Shown in pieces: positions 2,088 through 35,446 of a DNA stretch of 37,014 nt. The translations under genes and the position numbers were made by a program. Source of the stretch: an uncultured Candidatus Saccharibacteria bacterium (lineage in GTDB: Bacteria > Patescibacteriota > Saccharimonadia > Saccharimonadales > UBA10212). The stretch covers positions 1 through 37,014 of the forward strand of contig CAYWQH010000004.1 of assembly GCA_964460855.1 (NCBI GenBank). The letters are read 5' to 3'. The notes beneath the pieces were generated by a model, which was given only the letters and a program-made list of their open reading frames with translations, did not search any database and was not told the origin of the DNA. How positions within the stretch are numbered: the stretch's first letter is position 1; the number at the start of each line of letters is the position of its first letter.

Positions 2088-2846
2088 ATGACTAAAAAAA
2101 CTATAGCGGTGTTAAACCAAAAGGGCGGGGTAGGCAAAACTACTACCGTTATTAACCTGGCGGCCTATTTGGCAAAAAACGGCCGGCGGGTGCTGGTTTG
2201 CGACCTCGACCCCCAGGGCAATAGTACTAGCGGCCTGGGCCTGGATAAGCAGGCGCTGGATGCCACCCTATACGATGTATTATTTGGCCGCGCCGAAGCG
2301 GCCGATGTTATTAAAGAAGTTTCCGGACTCAACATTAAAGTTTTACCAGCCAATGCCCAATTAGCCTCTTCAGAAGTGGAACTGGTTGCAGTGGCTAACC
2401 GCGAACAACAACTCAAAAAAATCCTGGCCAAGCTGGAATACGATTACATATTAATAGATTGCCCGCCGTCGCTTGGTTTACTTTCGGTAAACGCCCTGTG
2501 CGCCGCCGACGACCTGCTTATACCGGTGCAAACAGAATATTATGCCCTGGAGGGCTTAAGCCAATTGCTCAGCGTTATGCAGCAAGTCCGCCAGGCGCTT
2601 AACCCCGACTTAAATTTGCTTGGCATAGTACTGACCATGTACGACAAACGAACATCATTGTCCGACCAAGTCAGGGACGAAGTTAAAAAACATTTTGGCG
2701 CCAAAGTATTCGAAACCGTCATTCCGCGCAATGTCCGGCTTGCGGAAGCGCCGAGTTTCGGTAAAACTATACTTGAGCACGATAAATGGAGCAAAGGCGC
2801 CCGGGCATACAAGGCGCTGTCCAAAGAGTTAGAGAAGAGGGTATAA
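2088..2846 (+). CDS. parA: Chromosome partitioning ATPase ParA/Soj
   Basis: Deviant Walker A NQKGGVGKTT, DLDPQGN, IDCPPSLG, IPRNVRLAEAPSFG. Confidence 0.96.
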   Translation: MTKKTIAVLNQKGGVGKTTTVINLAAYLAKNGRRVLVCDLDPQGNSTSGLGLDKQALDATLYDVLFGRAEAADVIKEVSGLNIKVLPANAQLASSEVELVAVANREQQLKKILAKLEYDYILIDCPPSLGLLSVNALCAADDLLIPVQTEYYALEGLSQLLSVMQQVRQALNPDLNLLGIVLTMYDKRTSLSDQVRDEVKKHFGAKVFETVIPRNVRLAEAPSFGKTILEHDKWSKGARAYKALSKELEKRV

Positions 2847-3695
2847 ATGGCAAAAGGTTTAGGCAAAGGTTTCGACATATTAATCCCGACCAACCTCGAT
2901 AAATCGATTATCGAAGAAGACCACCACCGCGTCCAAAAAATATTAATTTCTGATGTCGTTCCCAACAAGCAGCAGCCGCGTACCGAGTTCGACCAGCAAG
3001 CAATGGAAGAGCTCAGTTCCTCCGTTAAACGGCACGGCGTGCTGCAGCCAATTATTGTGGTCCGCCACGGCGACAAGTATAAAATCGTAGCCGGCGAGCG
3101 GCGCTGGCGGGCGGCTAAAATGGCCGACCACAGCCATATACCGGCCATTGTGCGGTCGCTGGAAGAATTGGAAGCCCTGGAGCTGTCGTTAATCGAAAAC
3201 ATCCAGCGCGAAGATTTAACGCCTATGGACCAGGCTATGACCATCTACCGGCTGCAGCAGCAGCTGAACATGGCAATCGAAGACATCGCCGCCAAACTGG
3301 GCAAAGCCCCAAGTACACTTGGTAATGTGGTGCGTTTGCTGCAACTGCCCGAAGTAGCCAAGCTGGCGCTAAACCAAGGCAAAATCAGCGAAGGCCACGC
3401 CCGGGCCATATTAGCCTTGCGCGACCAGCCGGCTAACCAGGAAATTTTGCTGCAGGAAATTTTAAAAAACAAATGGACGGTCCGCCAAGCCGAACAGTAC
3501 GTAGTGGCACTGCGCAAAGGCGCCGGCCGCGGCGTAAAAAAGGCCATGGCCGCCCAAACGCCGTTTACCAAAGAGTTCGGCAAGTCGCTGGGAACCAGCG
3601 TTACGCTGCGCCGCAAAGCTAAAGGCGGCGAAATAGTTATAACTTACAAGAACGATTCCGAGCTCAAAAGATTAGAAAAGAAACTTAAAAGCTAA
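2847..3695 (+). CDS. parB: Chromosome partitioning protein ParB/Spo0J
   Basis: QPR, GVLQPI, AGERRWRA arginine patch, LIENIQREDL, HTH, ISEGHARAIL; directly follows parA. Confidence 0.96.
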   Translation: MAKGLGKGFDILIPTNLDKSIIEEDHHRVQKILISDVVPNKQQPRTEFDQQAMEELSSSVKRHGVLQPIIVVRHGDKYKIVAGERRWRAAKMADHSHIPAIVRSLEELEALELSLIENIQREDLTPMDQAMTIYRLQQQLNMAIEDIAAKLGKAPSTLGNVVRLLQLPEVAKLALNQGKISEGHARAILALRDQPANQEILLQEILKNKWTVRQAEQYVVALRKGAGRGVKKAMAAQTPFTKEFGKSLGTSVTLRRKAKGGEIVITYKNDSELKRLEKKLKS

Positions 3696-29787: not shown

Positions 29788-30452
29788 TGATCGAAGTAAA
29801 ACATTTGAGTAAAACTTTTAAGTCGGGTGATAATGACATATCGGCTGTGAATAATATATCGTTCAAAGTTAAGACCGGCCAGTTCGCCAGTATTGTCGGC
29901 AAAAGCGGCAGCGGTAAAAGCACGCTGCTAAGTTTGCTTGGCGCGTTAGATACGCCGACAAAAGGCTCTATAGTAGTTGATGGCCAGGATGTCAGCCAGT
30001 TGAACGCCGGCAGTTTAACCGGCTACCGCAATAAATCGATCGGTTTTGTCTTTCAAAGTTATAACCTGATTCCTAACCTGACTGCGTTGGAAAATGTCAT
30101 GCTGCCGATGGAATTCGCCAAAATGCCTGTAAAGCAGCGCAAAGCCCGGGCGGCAGAGTTGTTAAACCAGGTCGGTATCACTGCCGATAAGCAGTCACGG
30201 CGGCCAGGCCGGTTGTCGGGCGGCGAACAACAGCGGGTGGCTATAGCCCGGGCCCTGGCTAACCAGCCCAAACTTATTCTGGCCGACGAGCCAACCGGCA
30301 ACCTCGACAGCCAGACAGGTAAAATGATCTTCAATTTATTGCATGACCTGGCCAAGGCCCAAAAAACGACGATTATCGCCGTTACCCATGATTCATCAAT
30401 TGCCGGCAAAACAGATGTTACTTACAAATTATCTGACGGCAAACTGGTCTAA
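29787..30452 (+). CDS. ABC transporter ATP-binding protein (LolD/MacB type)
   Basis: [46 protein letters not shown]. Confidence 0.95.
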
Positions 30453-31195
30453 GCTTTAGCCGACAGGAAATTATCAAAACCTGGAGTCGCTAAAGCCTCA
30501 GTTTCATTAAGCATGGCGTAGCCTTCGTAGCCGGGAAATTTCCGTAATAAGGCGATGCCTTTATCGCCGCCCATCGCAAAAACAGCCGTTGCTAGCGCGT
30601 CGGCAGTCGTTATATCTGGCCCGATAACCGTTGCGCTTAACATAGGTGAAAGGCGGCCGTGAGGGTTATAAATATGCCGGCCGCGCTCATACTCACCAGA
30701 AGTCGCGATAGCGCAATCTTTTAGCTCGACAACTTTAGCATATTTTGCCGGTTGGGGCGGAAATTTTATGCCAACCCGCCAATATTCGCCTTTGTCGTTT
30801 GTACCGCGGGCGGTTATATCACCGCCGGCTTCAATATAATAATTTTCTGCGCTGCCGGCACTCAATATCGCGGCGGCTTTGGCGATAGACCAGCCTTTTA
30901 CTATGCCGGAGGGGTCGAGGCGCCCATTTCGCTGCGGGTCAAAATAACCCTGCGTACTTTCTTTAAATTTGTCGCTGAGTTTAAGCACGCCGCGAACTTC
31001 GGGCGACAACCCTTCATAGCTTAACTCGCCGCTATTAAGCCGGCTGATTTCACTATCGGGTTTATACGTGCTGAATAATTGGTCGACCTGCCGGAACCAT
31101 TCAAAGCAATTATTCACGAGTTTGGTGTGGCCAGGAAGGCTACCGGCAACCGAAATAGTTACAGGCATACCCATAATTAATTGGGTTTGGGTCAT
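30449..31195 (-). CDS. apbE: FAD:protein FMN transferase (ApbE family), short form without a signal peptide
   Basis: IMG, FSTYKPDSEISRLN, DPSGIVKGW, EAGGD, IATSGEYERGRHIYNP, ADALATA. Confidence 0.92.
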   Translation of the reverse strand: MTQTQLIMGMPVTISVAGSLPGHTKLVNNCFEWFRQVDQLFSTYKPDSEISRLNSGELSYEGLSPEVRGVLKLSDKFKESTQGYFDPQRNGRLDPSGIVKGWSIAKAAAILSAGSAENYYIEAGGDITARGTNDKGEYWRVGIKFPPQPAKYAKVVELKDCAIATSGEYERGRHIYNPHGRLSPMLSATVIGPDITTADALATAVFAMGGDKGIALLRKFPGYEGYAMLNETEALATPGFDNFLSAKA

Positions 31196-31689
31196 GTACT
31201 GGTAGTGGTTTGGTTACTGGCCGAAGATTTGGCGGCCTGGCTTAGTGCTGTTTGCAGTGACTGGACATAACCTTCGCTGGTACTGGTGGCGCCGCTGACA
31301 ATATCAACATTGGCACTTTGGGCCGAAATGGTTTCGCTCTTTAAAATTGGCTCAGCTATAGCCGATAGGCGGTAGCTGCGGTTAGCCTCTGACGGCATAC
31401 TTAAAAAACTGATGTCGCTAATTTTGCCGCCGCTGATGGTAGCTTTAACTTGCACGATACCGAAATGCACATCTACGGCCTGGCCTGTATAGCTGCCGTC
31501 TGATAAGTTGGCCGTCGAACTATTGCCGGCAGATACATTGCCAGTCGGGTTTGTTGTGCCGCCGCTATTATTGGACGGTTGCAATAAACTGGTTGCCGGC
31601 GTATCCGCCCCGGGCGACTGTTGCTTAACCAGCGCCGCCGCTATAACGACTATTGCGATGGCGAATATACCGATAATAGTTTTCTTCAT
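31192..31689 (-). CDS. Membrane-anchored FMN-binding (flavinylated) protein
   Basis: N-terminal TM helix, S/N/T/G linker, DGSYTG...FGIVQVKATISGGKI, flavinylation motif VDIVSGATSTS. Start at ATG 31689. Confidence 0.92.
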   Translation of the reverse strand: MKKTIIGIFAIAIVVIAAALVKQQSPGADTPATSLLQPSNNSGGTTNPTGNVSAGNSSTANLSDGSYTGQAVDVHFGIVQVKATISGGKISDISFLSMPSEANRSYRLSAIAEPILKSETISAQSANVDIVSGATSTSEGYVQSLQTALSQAAKSSASNQTTTST

Positions 31690-31698
31690 AGTGATAAT

Positions 31699-31731
31699 AG
31701 AATAATAACCCAATCTGAATTTTTGCTGAGC
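31699..31731 (-). promoter_or_regulatory. Third candidate response-regulator box, before the FMN-binding/apbE operon
   Basis: Minus strand GCTCAG caaaa ATTCAG (31731-31715), then TATTCT 10 nt downstream. Confidence 0.55.
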
Positions 31732-32605: not shown

Positions 32606-32730
32606 ATCAAATCTCCTGTTAATTCATTATGGGACTTTACCAAATCCGCATAGTATTACGTAGTTAAATACTTAACTTACAGCCGCTGCGGTTTATTTCA
32701 GAATATAGTCATTAATAACTGAGGTTGCCT

Positions 32731-33174
32731 ATGTCTAGCTCTACCCACTGGTTCGATACTTTAGAAAAACCATCTTGGACCCCCGAAGAATTAAGCATCA
32801 GGTTGGTCTGGCACATTTTTTACCCGTTGCTGTACCTGGTTAATATAGGGGTAATTTACCATATGTTTTTTGGCGATTTTGGCTGGCGCCAAGCTGTACC
32901 ATTCTGGATAAATTTGCTTGTCACGCTTTCATTCATGCCGATACTGAACCGCTTCAGGAGTTTATGGCTGTCTTTATTTAACTTGATGTTGGTTTGGATT
33001 AGCATAATAGACTGTTTGGTAATCATCCATCCTTACAGCCAGATGATGTTCCTGGCTTACGAAGTTTACTTTATGTGGGCTACCGCCCTTGGCTTCTTAT
33101 TGTTCAAACTGGCCTGGCTAAACAGCCGCCCGGAATACGAAATAAAAATCGAGCGCCCCAAATTCGGCCAATAG
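32731..33174 (+). CDS. tspO: TspO/MBR-family tryptophan-rich sensory protein (divergent)
   Basis: WFDTLEKPSWTP, VWHIFY, about 5 TM helices, YFMW..A..L...LAWLN. ATG at 32731 after GAGG. Confidence 0.8.
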   Translation: MSSSTHWFDTLEKPSWTPEELSIRLVWHIFYPLLYLVNIGVIYHMFFGDFGWRQAVPFWINLLVTLSFMPILNRFRSLWLSLFNLMLVWISIIDCLVIIHPYSQMMFLAYEVYFMWATALGFLLFKLAWLNSRPEYEIKIERPKFGQ

Positions 33175-33213
33175 TTAGCCGCAGGCAGAGCCAAGCCGCG
33201 GTAGTATTTGGAA

Positions 33214-33242
33214 TTGCCAGCTCTGGCCGCTTGCATTACACT
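33214..33242 (+). promoter_or_regulatory. Promoter for the heliorhodopsin-like gene (probably leaderless)
   Basis: TTGCCA-17 nt-TACACT-7 nt-ATG (33250). Confidence 0.6.
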
Positions 33243-33249
33243 TGTATCA

Positions 33250-34077
33250 ATGACTAAAAAGGTGACCAAAACCATGAAAAAGGCTAAAAGGGGTGGCAAA
33301 TTGTCTATGGAGATGCTGCGCCGGGTCAACCTGGTTATGGCCTTGTTGCTGTTCGTAGAAGCGGTCGTACTTTTAATCATGCGCCACAATAACAGCGGAT
33401 TGCAGCCTATTTCCGGCCACTTCCTGGCAATCGATAAACTGGCTAGTAATAGCGCCGGCCATAATGTTTGGGTACCGGCCAGCAAGCACCTTTTTGACCT
33501 GAATATCGCTTACGTAATCGTAGCCTTTTTATTAATCAGCGCTTTAATAAGGGTCTTGATAGGCACCGTATGGCGTAAAAAATACGAAGCTGAGCTAAAT
33601 AACAAAGTAGGGCGGGCGCGCTGGCTGGAATTTGCGACGGCAGGTGGATTGTTGCTGTTAACGGTAGCCATGCTTACAGGTGTTTTGGACTTGGCAAGCT
33701 TAACTATGCTGTTTGTGATTAACCTGGCTGTTTGCATACTTGGCTTGGTTTGGGAATTTGCCCGGCCGGCAATCAACCCGGCTGGCCGCTGGGTGCCCTG
33801 GCTTGGAGTTGTATTAATCCTTACCCCCTGGCTGGTTTTAGGCAAATACTTATTTGATGCCATCCTTTATGGCGACGGACTGGCGCGTTATGTTTATGTT
33901 CTTGTAGCCAGCGTTTTTGTGCTGTTCTTATTGTTTGCCGCCAACGAATTTATGATGCGCCGCGGCCGGGGCCGGTGGGGCAACTATGTGTTCGGCGAAC
34001 TGATGTTTATTATTTTGAGTTTTGTAACATTAACGGCCGTAGCCTGGCAGGTGTTTGCCGGTATCTTAAAGGCTTAA
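33250..34077 (+). CDS. Heliorhodopsin (HeR) homologue lacking the retinal-binding lysine
   Basis: 7 TM helices; basic N-terminus plus LRRVNL; LFDLNIAY..AFLLISAL; RWLEF (HeR RWxEY); LTG..D; PW; YVY; GRWGNYVFGE..FIILSFVTLTAVAWQVFAG, versus HeR GE..YI.LSLVAKSxLAWQVFAG. Confidence 0.88.
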   Translation: MTKKVTKTMKKAKRGGKLSMEMLRRVNLVMALLLFVEAVVLLIMRHNNSGLQPISGHFLAIDKLASNSAGHNVWVPASKHLFDLNIAYVIVAFLLISALIRVLIGTVWRKKYEAELNNKVGRARWLEFATAGGLLLLTVAMLTGVLDLASLTMLFVINLAVCILGLVWEFARPAINPAGRWVPWLGVVLILTPWLVLGKYLFDAILYGDGLARYVYVLVASVFVLFLLFAANEFMMRRGRGRWGNYVFGELMFIILSFVTLTAVAWQVFAGILKA

Positions 34078-34082
34078 GCTAA

Positions 34083-34163
34083 ATGAGCGTCAAAACATTG
34101 GCGCCCATCATAGCGGTTGTCTTCGCGCTAATTGCCGCCGTGGCGGTAGTTTTAGCCCACTAG
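34083..34163 (+). CDS. Putative 26-aa single-TM micropeptide; absent from the ORF track
   Basis: Own translation: MSVKTLAPIIAVVFALIAAVAVVLAH. Fills the gap, 5 nt after the HeR stop and 8 nt before the next ATG. Confidence 0.5.
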   Translation: MSVKTLAPIIAVVFALIAAVAVVLAH

Positions 34164-34171
34164 TTTTTAAA

Positions 34172-35446
34172 ATGCCAGGTTTATACCGTTTAAAAATAGA
34201 TAAGTTGGTATTGGGCGGCCAGGGTATAGCGACTGACGCTGACGGCCGCAAAGTATTTGTTTGGAACGCTTTGCCGGGTGAAACGGTCGAAGCAAGTATT
34301 ATTAAGCGCAAGCGCGGCTACGCCGACGCGGTTGCCGAAAATATTATTACTGCCAGCGAGTTGCGGGCCGGCGCCAAAGAGCCCGAATATTTATCTACCA
34401 GCCCCTGGCAAATATTAAAATTCAGTGCCGAAAATGAATTTAAACGGCAGTTAGCCTTGGACGCCATGGCTGCCGCCAAAGTGACATTGCCCGAAGCCGG
34501 GCAGGTAATTACCGACCTTAAAGAGTGGCATTACCGAAACAAAATGGAATATTCTTTTTGGGGTGACGACCGTGGATTGCACCTAGCGCTTCATAAACGG
34601 GGCAGCCACACCAAACAGATAGTAACCGGCAGCCGGTTAGCGCTAGACGCCGTAAATGCCGCCGCCCAAGCGGTATGTGCCGAGCTACAGATACAAAACG
34701 CGCAAAAAAATATGAACATCCGGGCCGGAAATTTGAAAACAATAGTTGTTCGCTCCAGCCAAAATGGCTCAGCGGCGGCCAGCTTGTTCGTCAAACAGCC
34801 TGATTTTCCCCAAATTAACCTGCCGGCCGGTGTAAATGGCCTCAAAGTATATTTTTCTGACCCGCGCAGCCCGGCCTCGGTCAGAACTAACTTGATTTAT
34901 GAATTGGGCAGCTGCGATTTACAAGACCAGTTACTAGGGAAGAATTTCAGCTATAGCTGCGACTCGTTTTTCCAGGTAAATATACCGGTGTACGGGCTGG
35001 CGCTTAAGCGAATTAAGGAATTTGCTGGGGGCCATCTATTAGATATGTATGCCGGAGTCGGCTCCATCGGATTAAGTATGGGCGCCGATCAACTAAAATT
35101 GGTGGAACTGGATGCCGAATCGGCAGGCTATGCCGCCGCTAACGCTAAAGCAATATTGCCGGGCGCCGAAGTCATTAAGGCATCGGCTGAGAAGGCGTTG
35201 GATAAAATCGCCAAGGATACGACGATAATATTTGACCCGCCCCGGGCCGGCTTGCACCGCAAAGTAATCAGTAAGTTATTAGAAATTTTACCGCCCCGCC
35301 TGGTATATCTGAGTTGCAACCCGGCTACCCAGGCCCGCGACCTGGCATTGCTTTCTGCGGCATACAAGGTAGATTTTTTTGAGGTTTATAATTTTTTTCC
35401 TAAAACGCCGCATATCGAAACGTTAGCGGTTCTTAACCTTATTTGA
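34172..35446 (+). CDS. TRAM-domain RNA m5U methyltransferase (RlmD/TrmA family)
   Basis: TRAM (GGQG...VFVWNALPGE), YRNKMEY, SFFQVN, DMYAGVG, DPPRAG, YLSCNPAT.ARD, FFPKTPHIE. Confidence 0.92.
   Translation: MPGLYRLKIDKLVLGGQGIATDADGRKVFVWNALPGETVEASIIKRKRGYADAVAENIITASELRAGAKEPEYLSTSPWQILKFSAENEFKRQLALDAMAAAKVTLPEAGQVITDLKEWHYRNKMEYSFWGDDRGLHLALHKRGSHTKQIVTGSRLALDAVNAAAQAVCAELQIQNAQKNMNIRAGNLKTIVVRSSQNGSAAASLFVKQPDFPQINLPAGVNGLKVYFSDPRSPASVRTNLIYELGSCDLQDQLLGKNFSYSCDSFFQVNIPVYGLALKRIKEFAGGHLLDMYAGVGSIGLSMGADQLKLVELDAESAGYAAANAKAILPGAEVIKASAEKALDKIAKDTTIIFDPPRAGLHRKVISKLLEILPPRLVYLSCNPATQARDLALLSAAYKVDFFEVYNFFPKTPHIETLAVLNLI

Follow-up and report, generated by a model that had tools for sequence, protein, structure and literature searches.

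The 37,014-nucleotide contig CAYWQH010000004.1 of an uncultured Candidatus Saccharibacteria bacterium (GenBank assembly GCA_964460855.1; positions 1 to 37,014 of the forward strand, hereafter the window) encodes a protein of the heliorhodopsin (HeR) family, P0001, in which the lysine of the retinal Schiff base is replaced by leucine. Lysine-less relatives of this protein proved to be numerous, and no other rhodopsin was found in the genome that carries it. We think it probable, on balance, that P0001 is a HeR scaffold that lacks a chromophore and has been retained for a role independent of light, an arginine (Arg101) standing in for the protonated Schiff base. The positions of the gene, its key codons and neighbouring features are collected in Table 1.

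Profile searches placed P0001 in the HeR homology family by full-length matches above curated cut-offs. Pfam PF18761 (Heliorhodopsin) was matched at 1.1e-50 with 172.7 bits (cut-off 26.7) over profile positions 1-242 of 242, and the NCBIfam HeR equivalog NF038020 at 1e-48 with 166 bits (cut-off 100). The best matches of known structure found by phmmer were TaHeR (6is6, 1.7e-30) and 48C12 (6su3, 4.1e-24). PF01036, the profile of the type-1 lineage, was absent from the Pfam matches of P0001 at E-values up to 1, and the protein does not belong to that lineage by this measure.

The phmmer alignment with 6is6 set the TaHeR segment ILSLVAKSALAWQVFAG over the window segment ILSFVTLTAVAWQVFAG and placed Leu261 at the Schiff-base lysine site; the SxxxK motif of transmembrane helix (TM) 7 reads S257-F-V-T-L261 in P0001. 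The two histidines of the Schiff-base cavity (H23 and H80 of 48C12) were also replaced: the TM1 segment MGVIHLIQ of TaHeR lies over MALLLFVE, giving Leu34, and the TM2 segment ISATAHILI over ISALIRVLI, giving Arg101. Both histidines occur in all 50 canonical rows of our alignments by definition of the canonical class. TaHeR RWFE aligned with RWLE in P0001, and the TM3 glutamate counterion of a retinal protein is present as Glu127. A first-pass annotation of the window had described an intact HeR homologue unable to form the canonical TM7 Schiff base, with Leu and Arg at the TM1 and TM2 histidine sites, the RWxE motif kept and a TTA codon two changes away from AAA; the family matches, the fold, the alignment and the codons agreed with this description. 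P0001 thereby fits the descriptive class 'Rh-noK', an intact rhodopsin-superfamily homologue without the Schiff-base lysine, which is not a clade.

That the missing lysine is a sequencing or assembly error, or the product of a chimeric contig, has a negligible chance of being true. Two substitutions separate the TTA of codon 261 from AAA, the two cavity histidines have become Leu and Arg, and many coordinated changes run throughout the protein. P0165, a protein from a separate Logan assembly, was identical to P0001 at 267 of 267 residues, and contigs over 33100-34200 in 4/4 soil-metagenome runs of one study showed 0 differences across the gene; two of these runs are a possible source of the window itself, and the other two (X3 and X4) cover codon 261. 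Because the identical sequence was recovered in separate assemblies and runs, Leu261 is not an error, in line with the first-pass annotation, which had thought a simple sequencing error unlikely, and no point in favour of an error was found. Run X2 also contained a 241-nt contig of low depth that matched the 5' end of the gene (33255-33334) with 9 differences in 80 nt and then diverged; its probable source is a relative in that soil sample, either another strain or another species.

The AlphaFold2 model of P0001, built from a 104-row alignment, had a mean predicted local distance difference test score (pLDDT) of 94.3 and a predicted template modelling score (pTM) of 0.89. It contained seven helices (residues 20-44, 86-105, 122-142, 148-174, 182-207, 213-238 and 246-273) and two strands (51-61 and 74-85), which form a long AB beta-hairpin between TM1 and TM2. 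All of the ten top-ranking Foldseek hits in the Protein Data Bank were HeR structures (6is6, TMt 0.90 and root-mean-square deviation (rmsd) 1.9 A; 6su3, TMt 0.87); type-1 rhodopsins reached TMt values of at most 0.74 with rmsd above 4 A. The predicted model is a seven-TM fold with a TM1-TM2 beta-hairpin, superposable on the solved HeRs. Many Lys and Arg residues occur in its N-terminal tail (MTKKVTKTMKKAKRGGK), in keeping with the positive-inside rule given for 48C12 (PMC7049168), an observation that bears indirectly on an inverted topology with a cytoplasmic N-terminus.

A homodimer model of P0001 scored 0.75; the highest of 3 controls scored 0.00. Of proteins with known structures, 20 of 30 one-chain pairs and 1 of 23 single chains reach the score mark used for dimers, counts that are only roughly valid here because the alignment for P0001 was made separately. 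Contact agreement in the dimer runs was at least 81%, and partner pLDDT at least 81. The modelled interface comprises the AB hairpin, TM4 and TM5 and includes D147 and Y200. This result may reflect a memory of, or likeness to, solved HeR dimers. No alternative pocket lysine was found in P0001: Lys199 is the only lysine within a predicted TM helix, and the model places it at the dimer interface, in contact with residues 148-149 of the other copy. In the alignment and the model, the possibility raised earlier that another lysine occupies the pocket did not materialise.

Residues discussed for 48C12 were mapped onto P0001 using the names given in passages of PMC7049168 and the 6su3/6is6 alignment. 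Kept residues (48C12/window) were F72/F93, S76/S97, Y92/Y112, R104/R124, W105/W125, E107/E127, D127/D147, N138/N158, E149/E169, P172/P193, W173/W194, Y179/Y200, S201/S221, F206/F226, Y226/Y246, E230/E250, S237/S257, W246/W266 and Q247/Q267. Changed residues were H23/L34, H80/R101, N101/G121, Y108/F128, S111/A131, S112/G132, S113/G133, M115/L135, M141/V161, I142/C162, N207/L227, Q213/E233, Q216/M236 and K241/L261. The same sites were scored in 103 Lys-less rows, and those of the cytoplasmic polar cavity were well kept (R124 95%, Y112 93%, E250 91%, N27 84%, Asn at 121 81%), as were the E169/Y246 region (84% and 79%), W125 (95%), W194 (83%), the W266/Q267 surface cluster (92% and 81%) and the dimer residues D147 (86%) and Y200 (76%). 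The Schiff-base and retinal contacts were the least conserved of the tabulated sites: E127 27%, Ser at 131 25%, S257 35%, F226 39% and the M161-equivalent 16%.

Loss of the Schiff-base lysine is frequent among the closest relatives of P0001. We assembled 162 of them, 14 from a search of 90% clusters and 148 further representatives from an exhaustive search of 50% clusters (best 150 of 1,307 matches at E-values up to 0.001). The Schiff-base column held Lys in 67, a gap in 2 and another residue in 93, in a sample biased both by the choice of a Lys-less query, whose closest matches it comprises, and by the tendency of fast-evolving groups to break up into a larger number of 50% clusters. Fifteen kinds of residue replaced the lysine (A, Q, T, V, S, L, Y, N, I, M, G, E, R, P and H). 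P0002, which represents the window's own cluster, was excluded from all counts, and proteins shorter than 230 aa were excluded from the trees.

A sample free of this bias was provided by the genomes of the window's order. PF18761 matched in 160 of 201 sampled genomes, with 188 matches in all, and the scores fell into three groups: canonical (about 240-343 bits), middle (135-212 bits) and low (below 135 bits). The window copy, at 172.6 bits, belongs to the middle group. Key residues were read for the 30 best loci and for 40 loci from 212 to 105 bits, that is, 71 open reading frames (ORFs) besides the window's own (72 profile hits). The 30 best-scoring loci all read H/H/RWxE/S/K. The middle group kept AWQVFAG and lacked the lysine in 10 of 15 cases, the window included. 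At least 10 of the 201 genomes hold a Lys-less HeR. Retention of the family in this order, with genomes of about 0.6-1.5 Mb, is very high for a supposed light sensor; type-1 rhodopsins were found in only 4 of the 201.

A TM7-pattern search of GTDB, with one genome per species, returned 81 ORF rows for the best 80 of 586 relatives: 75 with Lys, 5 Lys-less and 1 fragment of 77 aa ending before the site. Four of the Lys-less rows came from metagenome-assembled genomes (MAGs) of Candidatus Saccharibacteria and one from a MAG labelled Candidatus Binatia, and the matches from Actinomycetota, Chloroflexota and archaea all kept the lysine. The Binatia case (L140, 2980-3780) has Gln at the site, lies on a 35-kb contig and is the only Lys-less match outside Saccharibacteria among these 80 loci; either misbinning or gene transfer could explain it.

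The trees were poorly resolved and suggested that the lysine was gained or lost many times. Lys/non-Lys changes numbered at least 44 on a 232-row FastTree, 40 on a 177-row LG+G4 quick tree and 16 on an 84-row PMSF quick tree, counts that are inexact: the Lys column was removed only for FastTree, 35 of the 79 inner branches of the 84-row tree were unsupported and the sequences are very divergent. Four genome ORFs duplicate database representatives (L036=P0037, L035=P0109, L034=P0021 and L043=P0130), the first two by identical sequence and the last two solely on the strength of shared key residues and placement as sisters in the tree. Each of the four counts double in the 232-row tree and in the residue-association and conservation counts, and all were removed from the 177-row set. 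On the 84-row tree the window fell in a 10-row group (SH-aLRT 96) with 9 Lys-less members, 6 of them carrying Arg101.

Selection could be measured for L045 and L046, two Lys-less proteins from congeneric species, each of which has Val in place of the Schiff-base lysine together with Arg101 and Glu127. This was the sole Lys-less pair close enough to estimate the ratio of nonsynonymous to synonymous substitution rates (dN/dS). With dN at 0.10 and dS at 1.5-1.9, the ratio was 0.053 (NG86) to 0.066 (maximum likelihood), compared with 0.03-0.045 in canonical pairs and 0.082 in a Lys-keeping pair of the same subfamily. Selection on the window's own branch may be read only indirectly, from its intact frame, kept invariant residues and confident fold.

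Lys-less and canonical copies share one chromosomal slot. In many genomes of the order, a HeR-family gene of any type lies just upstream of RumA, RsmE or PD-(D/E)XK genes. P0001 matches were found in 10 of 23 sampled genomes of the window's family, with five canonical copies (G003, G073, G307, G318 and G329) and five Lys-less ones (Ser in G149, Thr in G176, Gln in G261, Ala in G360 and Val in G395); the window itself (Leu) brings the Lys-less copies to six. The order Zincin-HeR-(RumA/RsmE)-PD-(D/E)XK was seen, where flanks were recognised, in 8 of these 11 copies, namely the six Lys-less ones and canonical G073 and G329. Across these 8 loci the flanking Zincin proteins were 54-69% identical in every pair, whereas HeR identity was 60.9% in the canonical pair and 26-50% in every pair with a Lys-less member. 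Two genomes of the same genus, G176 (L035, Thr) and G329 (L104, Lys), with the gene in the same Zincin-adjacent slot, had Zincin proteins 68.8% and HeRs 37.6% identical. Either the gene changed very fast after lysine loss, or the gene at the slot was replaced by old paralogues or alleles.

Such divergence could mean that P0001 is a decaying relic, functionless since the loss of the lysine and drifting towards deletion in this lineage. The terminal branch of the window protein measures 0.99 changes per site, pairs with a Lys-less member have diverged far beyond their Zincin neighbours and the canonical pair, the Gly at position 121 is a rare substitution at a well-kept site, and no HeR was found with the P0001 query in 13 of the 23 family members, so that loss does occur. 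Set against this, a frame of 275 codons has stayed intact at about 40% identity to any relative, with 172.7 bits where 26.7 suffice; the family-wide invariant residues R124, W125, D147, E169, E250 and W266 are kept, and the predicted fold reaches a pLDDT of 94. The sequence was identical in four soil samples of one study, all 107 HeR ORFs from 106 loci (the window's locus counted twice) scored as ORFs against the profile, and the related Lys-less pair gave a dN/dS of 0.05-0.07. We consider a relic quite improbable. The first-pass annotation had itself named a decaying singleton as the outcome that would overturn it; with 93 of 162 nearest relatives Lys-less and one pair under purifying selection, P0001 is no such case.

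The arginine at the TM2 histidine site gives the proposed light-independent scaffold a possible chemistry. The cavity of TaHeR and 48C12 is described as capped by two ionic pairs, protonated retinal Schiff base (RSBH+)/Glu and Arg/Glu, and lined by His23 and His82 (PMC9385722). Without a lysine, the first of these pairs would lose its cation. All 15 Lys-less rows with Arg101 keep Glu127, and Arg is the usual residue at the TM2-His site of Lys-less proteins that have retained Glu127. An acid at position 127 was found in 16 of 17 Lys-less rows with Arg or Lys at 101 and in 17 of 87 without (Fisher 6e-9, uncorrected for relatedness); the corresponding figures in the 177-row set were 16 of 17 and 17 of 90. 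Arg occupied the TM2-His site in 15 Lys-less rows and in 1 row with the Schiff-base lysine. Two Lys-less proteins, L040 (2998-3825, G181) and P0018, have Lys and not Arg at this cavity-lining site. Forcing all 17 Arg101 rows into one clade cost 95 log-likelihood units (approximately unbiased test, p-AU 0.038), a marginal rejection given that the alignment retained the column of the residue by which these rows were grouped and that the quick tree has long branches. This hints that Arg at site 101 arose more than once. Judging by the alignments, the arginine at the TM2 histidine site seems to make up for the charge that went with the protonated Schiff base, and is more than a lost histidine. We infer two possible routes after loss of the lysine: the counterion is lost too, or Glu127 is kept and an Arg is added, the window following the second.

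Loss of the TM1 histidine appears to be a trait of the subfamily. In 53 Lys-keeping rows of the fast-evolving subfamily, a class defined as lacking the full set of five canonical signature residues, the TM1-His site held Tyr in 40%, Phe in 34% and Leu in 19%, together 93%, with His at most rare. Loss of the TM1 histidine is not tied to loss of the lysine in this comparison.

Several observations weigh against the reading of P0001 as a maintained, charge-balanced scaffold. Retinal contacts have degenerated in the same 53 Lys-keeping rows, so their decay is not specific to lysine loss. Cavity residues that are otherwise well kept are altered in the window, as N101 has become G121 (Gly in 1% of Lys-less rows), Y108 has become F128 and S111 has become A131. 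The walls of the retinal pocket (F93, W125, N158, W194 and F226) are still present, which leaves room for a non-covalent ligand. The association of Arg101 with Glu127 was not significant once relatedness was controlled: the 84-row tree yielded 6 independent pairs, of which on average 4.4 agreed in direction, 0 disagreed and 1.6 showed no change (median p 0.125), and the 177-row tree gave 3 pairs on well-supported branches, also not significant. We regard this signal as having the right sign in an under-powered comparison. Uncorrected counts also tied Lys to an acidic residue at 127 (111 of 127 rows with Lys, 33 of 104 without), a link that vanished in independent pairs. Finally, the window protein stands on the long terminal branch given above, and its nearest relative is only 41-44% identical, so that selection on this lineage can be gauged only indirectly.

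Because the pocket walls persist, P0001 might still be a photoreceptor or ligand carrier that holds retinal, or a host-derived carotenoid or retinoid, non-covalently in an aromatic pocket. Hand mapping showed the walls to be kept (F93, W125, N158, W194, P193 and F226 for F72, W105, N138, W173, P172 and F206 of 48C12), and the change of S112 and S113 to G132 and G133 would enlarge the pocket. Saccharibacteria are reported to lack blh and to import external retinal for their type-1 rhodopsins (PMC9296517), and a carotenoid-binding site is reported in 91.3% of HeRs (bioRxiv 2025.11.27.691015). The replacements at position 261, however, are of 15 kinds among the Lys-less relatives, with no conserved attachment chemistry. 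Arg is incapable of forming a Schiff base, the window's own genome yielded no match for phytoene synthase, and the retinal and Schiff-base contacts are the very sites least conserved in Lys-less rows, E127, S257, F226 and the M161-equivalent among them. We judge a non-covalent ligand unlikely.

The gene inventory of the genome bears on a further possibility, that of a regulatory subunit heterodimerising with a canonical HeR or another rhodopsin of the same cell. The assembly to which the window belongs, as contig 4 of 13, spans 975,715 bp and is 96.5% complete. Profile searches of this genome returned 1 HeR-family match and 0 matches to PF01036; the latter search was positive above cut-off in 4 of the 201 genomes of the order. 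Phytoene/squalene synthase (SQS_PSY) gave 0 matches in the window's genome and was detected in 8 of 14 genomes in a control search; Blh/BCD (PF15461) also gave no match, a result that is uninformative since the control was blank in 14 of 14 genomes. Each of the 10 Lys-less carriers found among the 201 sampled genomes had a single HeR-family match and no PF01036 match above cut-off. HeRs are dimers, D147 and Y200 are kept and P0001 was modelled as a homodimer, and two or even three HeR-family genes occur together in certain genomes of the order (G072, G121 and G156, for example). With a sole rhodopsin-type gene in the window's genome and in 10 of 10 Lys-less carriers, the partnership with a canonical HeR proposed in the first-pass annotation lacks its second partner; we rate heterodimerisation as extremely improbable, and the inventory brings it close to refuted already.

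The preferred reading of P0001, as a light-independent scaffold, can be put together as follows. The gene belongs to a HeR subfamily that evolves fast, has its centre in Candidatus Saccharibacteria and has apparently lost the Schiff-base lysine many times. Its product would be an intact and selectively maintained member of the HeR family, now a seven-TM protein that is chromophore-free, or at least not covalently bound to retinal. The buried Glu127 is kept, and the lost protonated Schiff base would be replaced by Arg101 lining the same cavity. The second ionic pair (R124/E250), the polar cavity (N27, Y112, E169 and Y246), the lipid-facing W266/Q267 and the dimer residues D147 and Y200 are present as well. 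Most likely, P0001 would then be a HeR scaffold that is dimeric, fixed in a single charge-balanced state and able to work without light, its role being whatever light-independent membrane or partner-binding job HeRs may do in genomes of about 1 Mb.

The presence of many intact Lys-less homologues, one pair of them under purifying selection, and of a sole rhodopsin-type gene in the carriers suggests that part of the function of the HeR family is independent of light or retinal. Proposals for the function of HeRs, which is still debated, include sensing, regulation of glutamine synthetase (PMC9529153), a role in oxidative stress in bacteria of the Candidate Phyla Radiation (CPR) (PMC9166423) and carotenoid antennae (bioRxiv 2025.11.27.691015). 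A bolder and rather doubtful extension is that the HeR scaffold of Saccharibacteria performs an essential-like core function needing neither retinal nor light, retinal being an optional regulatory add-on. Candidates for this function are lipid handling, such as scrambling, or constitutive regulation of a cytoplasmic partner via the polar cavity. If so, Lys-less forms locked by Arg and Glu would mimic the dark-state pair of Schiff base and counterion and would be natural 'constitutive' versions, in which HeR function could be studied without light.

Lys-less homologues are in any case ready-made natural 'dark' variants for experiments. Genome annotation will name P0001 'heliorhodopsin HeR', since its NCBIfam score of 166 bits exceeds the cut-off of 100, and tallies of light sensors in Saccharibacteria that are based on HeR genes will come out too high. 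The exchange of Arg for the Schiff base, if confirmed, would show in what way a protein can neutralise a buried counterion once the chromophore has gone.

Table 1 Positions of the Lys-less HeR-family gene, its key codons and neighbouring features in the window
Feature	Position	Strand	Details
HeR-family coding sequence, Lys-less	33250-34077	+	275 aa plus stop, ATG 33250 (P0001); intact ORF 33208/33250-34077
Alternative starts of the HeR-like coding sequence	33208; 33274; 33307	+	TTG 33208; ATG 33274 (Logan gene call P0165); ATG 33307 (database representative P0002)
Leu34 (CTG)	33349-33351	+	TM1 His site (H23)
Arg101 (AGG)	33550-33552	+	TM2 His site (48C12 H80, TaHeR H82); proposed counter-charge for Glu127
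R124-W125-L126-E127 (CGC TGG CTG GAA)	33619-33630	+	RWxE motif; E127 former Schiff-base counterion; R124 partner of E250
Lys199 (AAA)	33844-33846	+	Sole Lys within a predicted TM helix (TM5); aligns to 48C12 I178; not conserved in relatives
Glu250 (GAA)	33997-33999	+	48C12 E230, TaHeR E227; with R124 second ionic pair, cytoplasmic cavity; 91% in Lys-less relatives
Leu261 (TTA)	34030-34032	+	Retinal Schiff-base Lys site (TaHeR K238, 48C12 K241)
Sigma-70-like promoter match TTGCCA-17-TACACT	33214-33242	+	9/12, weak consensus match
TspO/MBR family gene	32725-33174	+	Pfam 4.7e-14, profile 19-145 of 145, TTG start; 75 nt upstream of HeR-like gene
ApbE flavin transferase gene and FMN-binding-domain gene	30449-31713	-	4-nt overlap

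The promoter of the gene was weaker than first described. The 'intact ORF, good promoter' of the first-pass annotation held for the reading frame; the promoter is a single 9/12 match in a region with 5 sigma-70-like matches, where 2.5 +/- 1.5 are expected from shuffles. On the minus strand near the HeR-like gene lie the genes for ApbE and an FMN-binding protein, a pair that also adjoins the canonical HeR of G003 (L032). A Zincin-like peptidase, a 77-aa ORF and, directly upstream of the HeR-like gene, TspO/MBR are further neighbours; a RumA-type U5 methyltransferase, an RsmE-type methyltransferase and a PD-(D/E)XK nuclease follow downstream. TspO was considered as a functional partner in a tetrapyrrole or photo-oxidative module and rejected, as a TspO homologue stood beside the HeR gene in 0 of 184 other loci. 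The adjacency of TspO and HeR is peculiar to the window genome.

A second group of HeR paralogues in Saccharimonadales (L048-L071, for example L048 2926-3705 and L062 2797-3741) resembles the window gene in its slot upstream of RumA, RsmE or PD-(D/E)XK, in its strong divergence from canonical HeRs (below 135 Pfam bits) and in the absence of both histidines. It differs in keeping the lysine in 24 of 25 rows, in having Pro or Ser at the TM2-His site and in its TM7 tail, AFAVILIVGL, whereas the window protein keeps AWQVFAG and lacks the lysine. In the portions of the HeR literature consulted, no description of this group was found. At locus L028 (G156) a canonical HeR (1456-2259) and a member of the second group (2319-3239) stand in tandem, 59 nt apart and followed by RumA; this second copy has Arg at the Schiff-base position.

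Canonical HeRs (48C12, 6su3; TaHeR, 6is6) share with the window protein the Pfam and NCBIfam family, the predicted fold with its AB beta-hairpin, the RWxE motif, the Arg/Glu pair of the cytoplasmic cavity, the cluster equivalent to W246/Q247 and the residues of the (here modelled) dimer. The window protein departs from them in having Leu for the Schiff-base lysine, Leu and Arg for the cavity histidines, Ala, Gly and Gly for S111, S112 and S113, and Gly for N101. Judged from these residues, it should be unable to form a covalent retinal pigment, the defining trait of a rhodopsin.

Lys-less members of the HeR family are not described in the main HeR surveys, as far as the accessible parts of PMC7049168, PMC8612252, PMC9166423 and bioRxiv 2025.11.27.691015 go, nor in the papers returned by full-text searches, although Table S15 of PMC9166423, a CPR survey that screened for the SxxxK motif, may list such cases. 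Type-1 opsin homologues without the retinal lysine ('Rh-noK' or 'blind' opsins) are known (Becker et al. 2016, PMC4915679). About 600 of 5,558 microbial rhodopsin genes 'including HeRs' are Rh-noK according to PMC7714340, citing Yamauchi et al. 2019, and some of these genes lie in operons with proteorhodopsin and retinal-synthesis genes (PMC7714340). Similarly to the window protein, they belong to a rhodopsin-fold family, have lost the lysine in many lineages and are encoded by intact genes. The described cases are, however, type-1 (bacteriorhodopsin-like) proteins of opposite membrane orientation, and unlike those in operons the window gene is the sole rhodopsin-type gene of its genome. Because Lys-less type-1 opsins are known and Lys-less HeRs were not found described in these sources, the window protein would seem to extend a known kind to the HeR family and not to be categorically new. 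A parallel to its proposed role may be seen in the fungal opsin-related proteins (ORPs) of yeast, Lys-less rhodopsin homologues with light-independent roles (PMC7714340). These are eukaryotic, of the type-1 lineage and related to P0001 at the superfamily level only, but by analogy they provide a precedent for a chromophore-free job on this scaffold.

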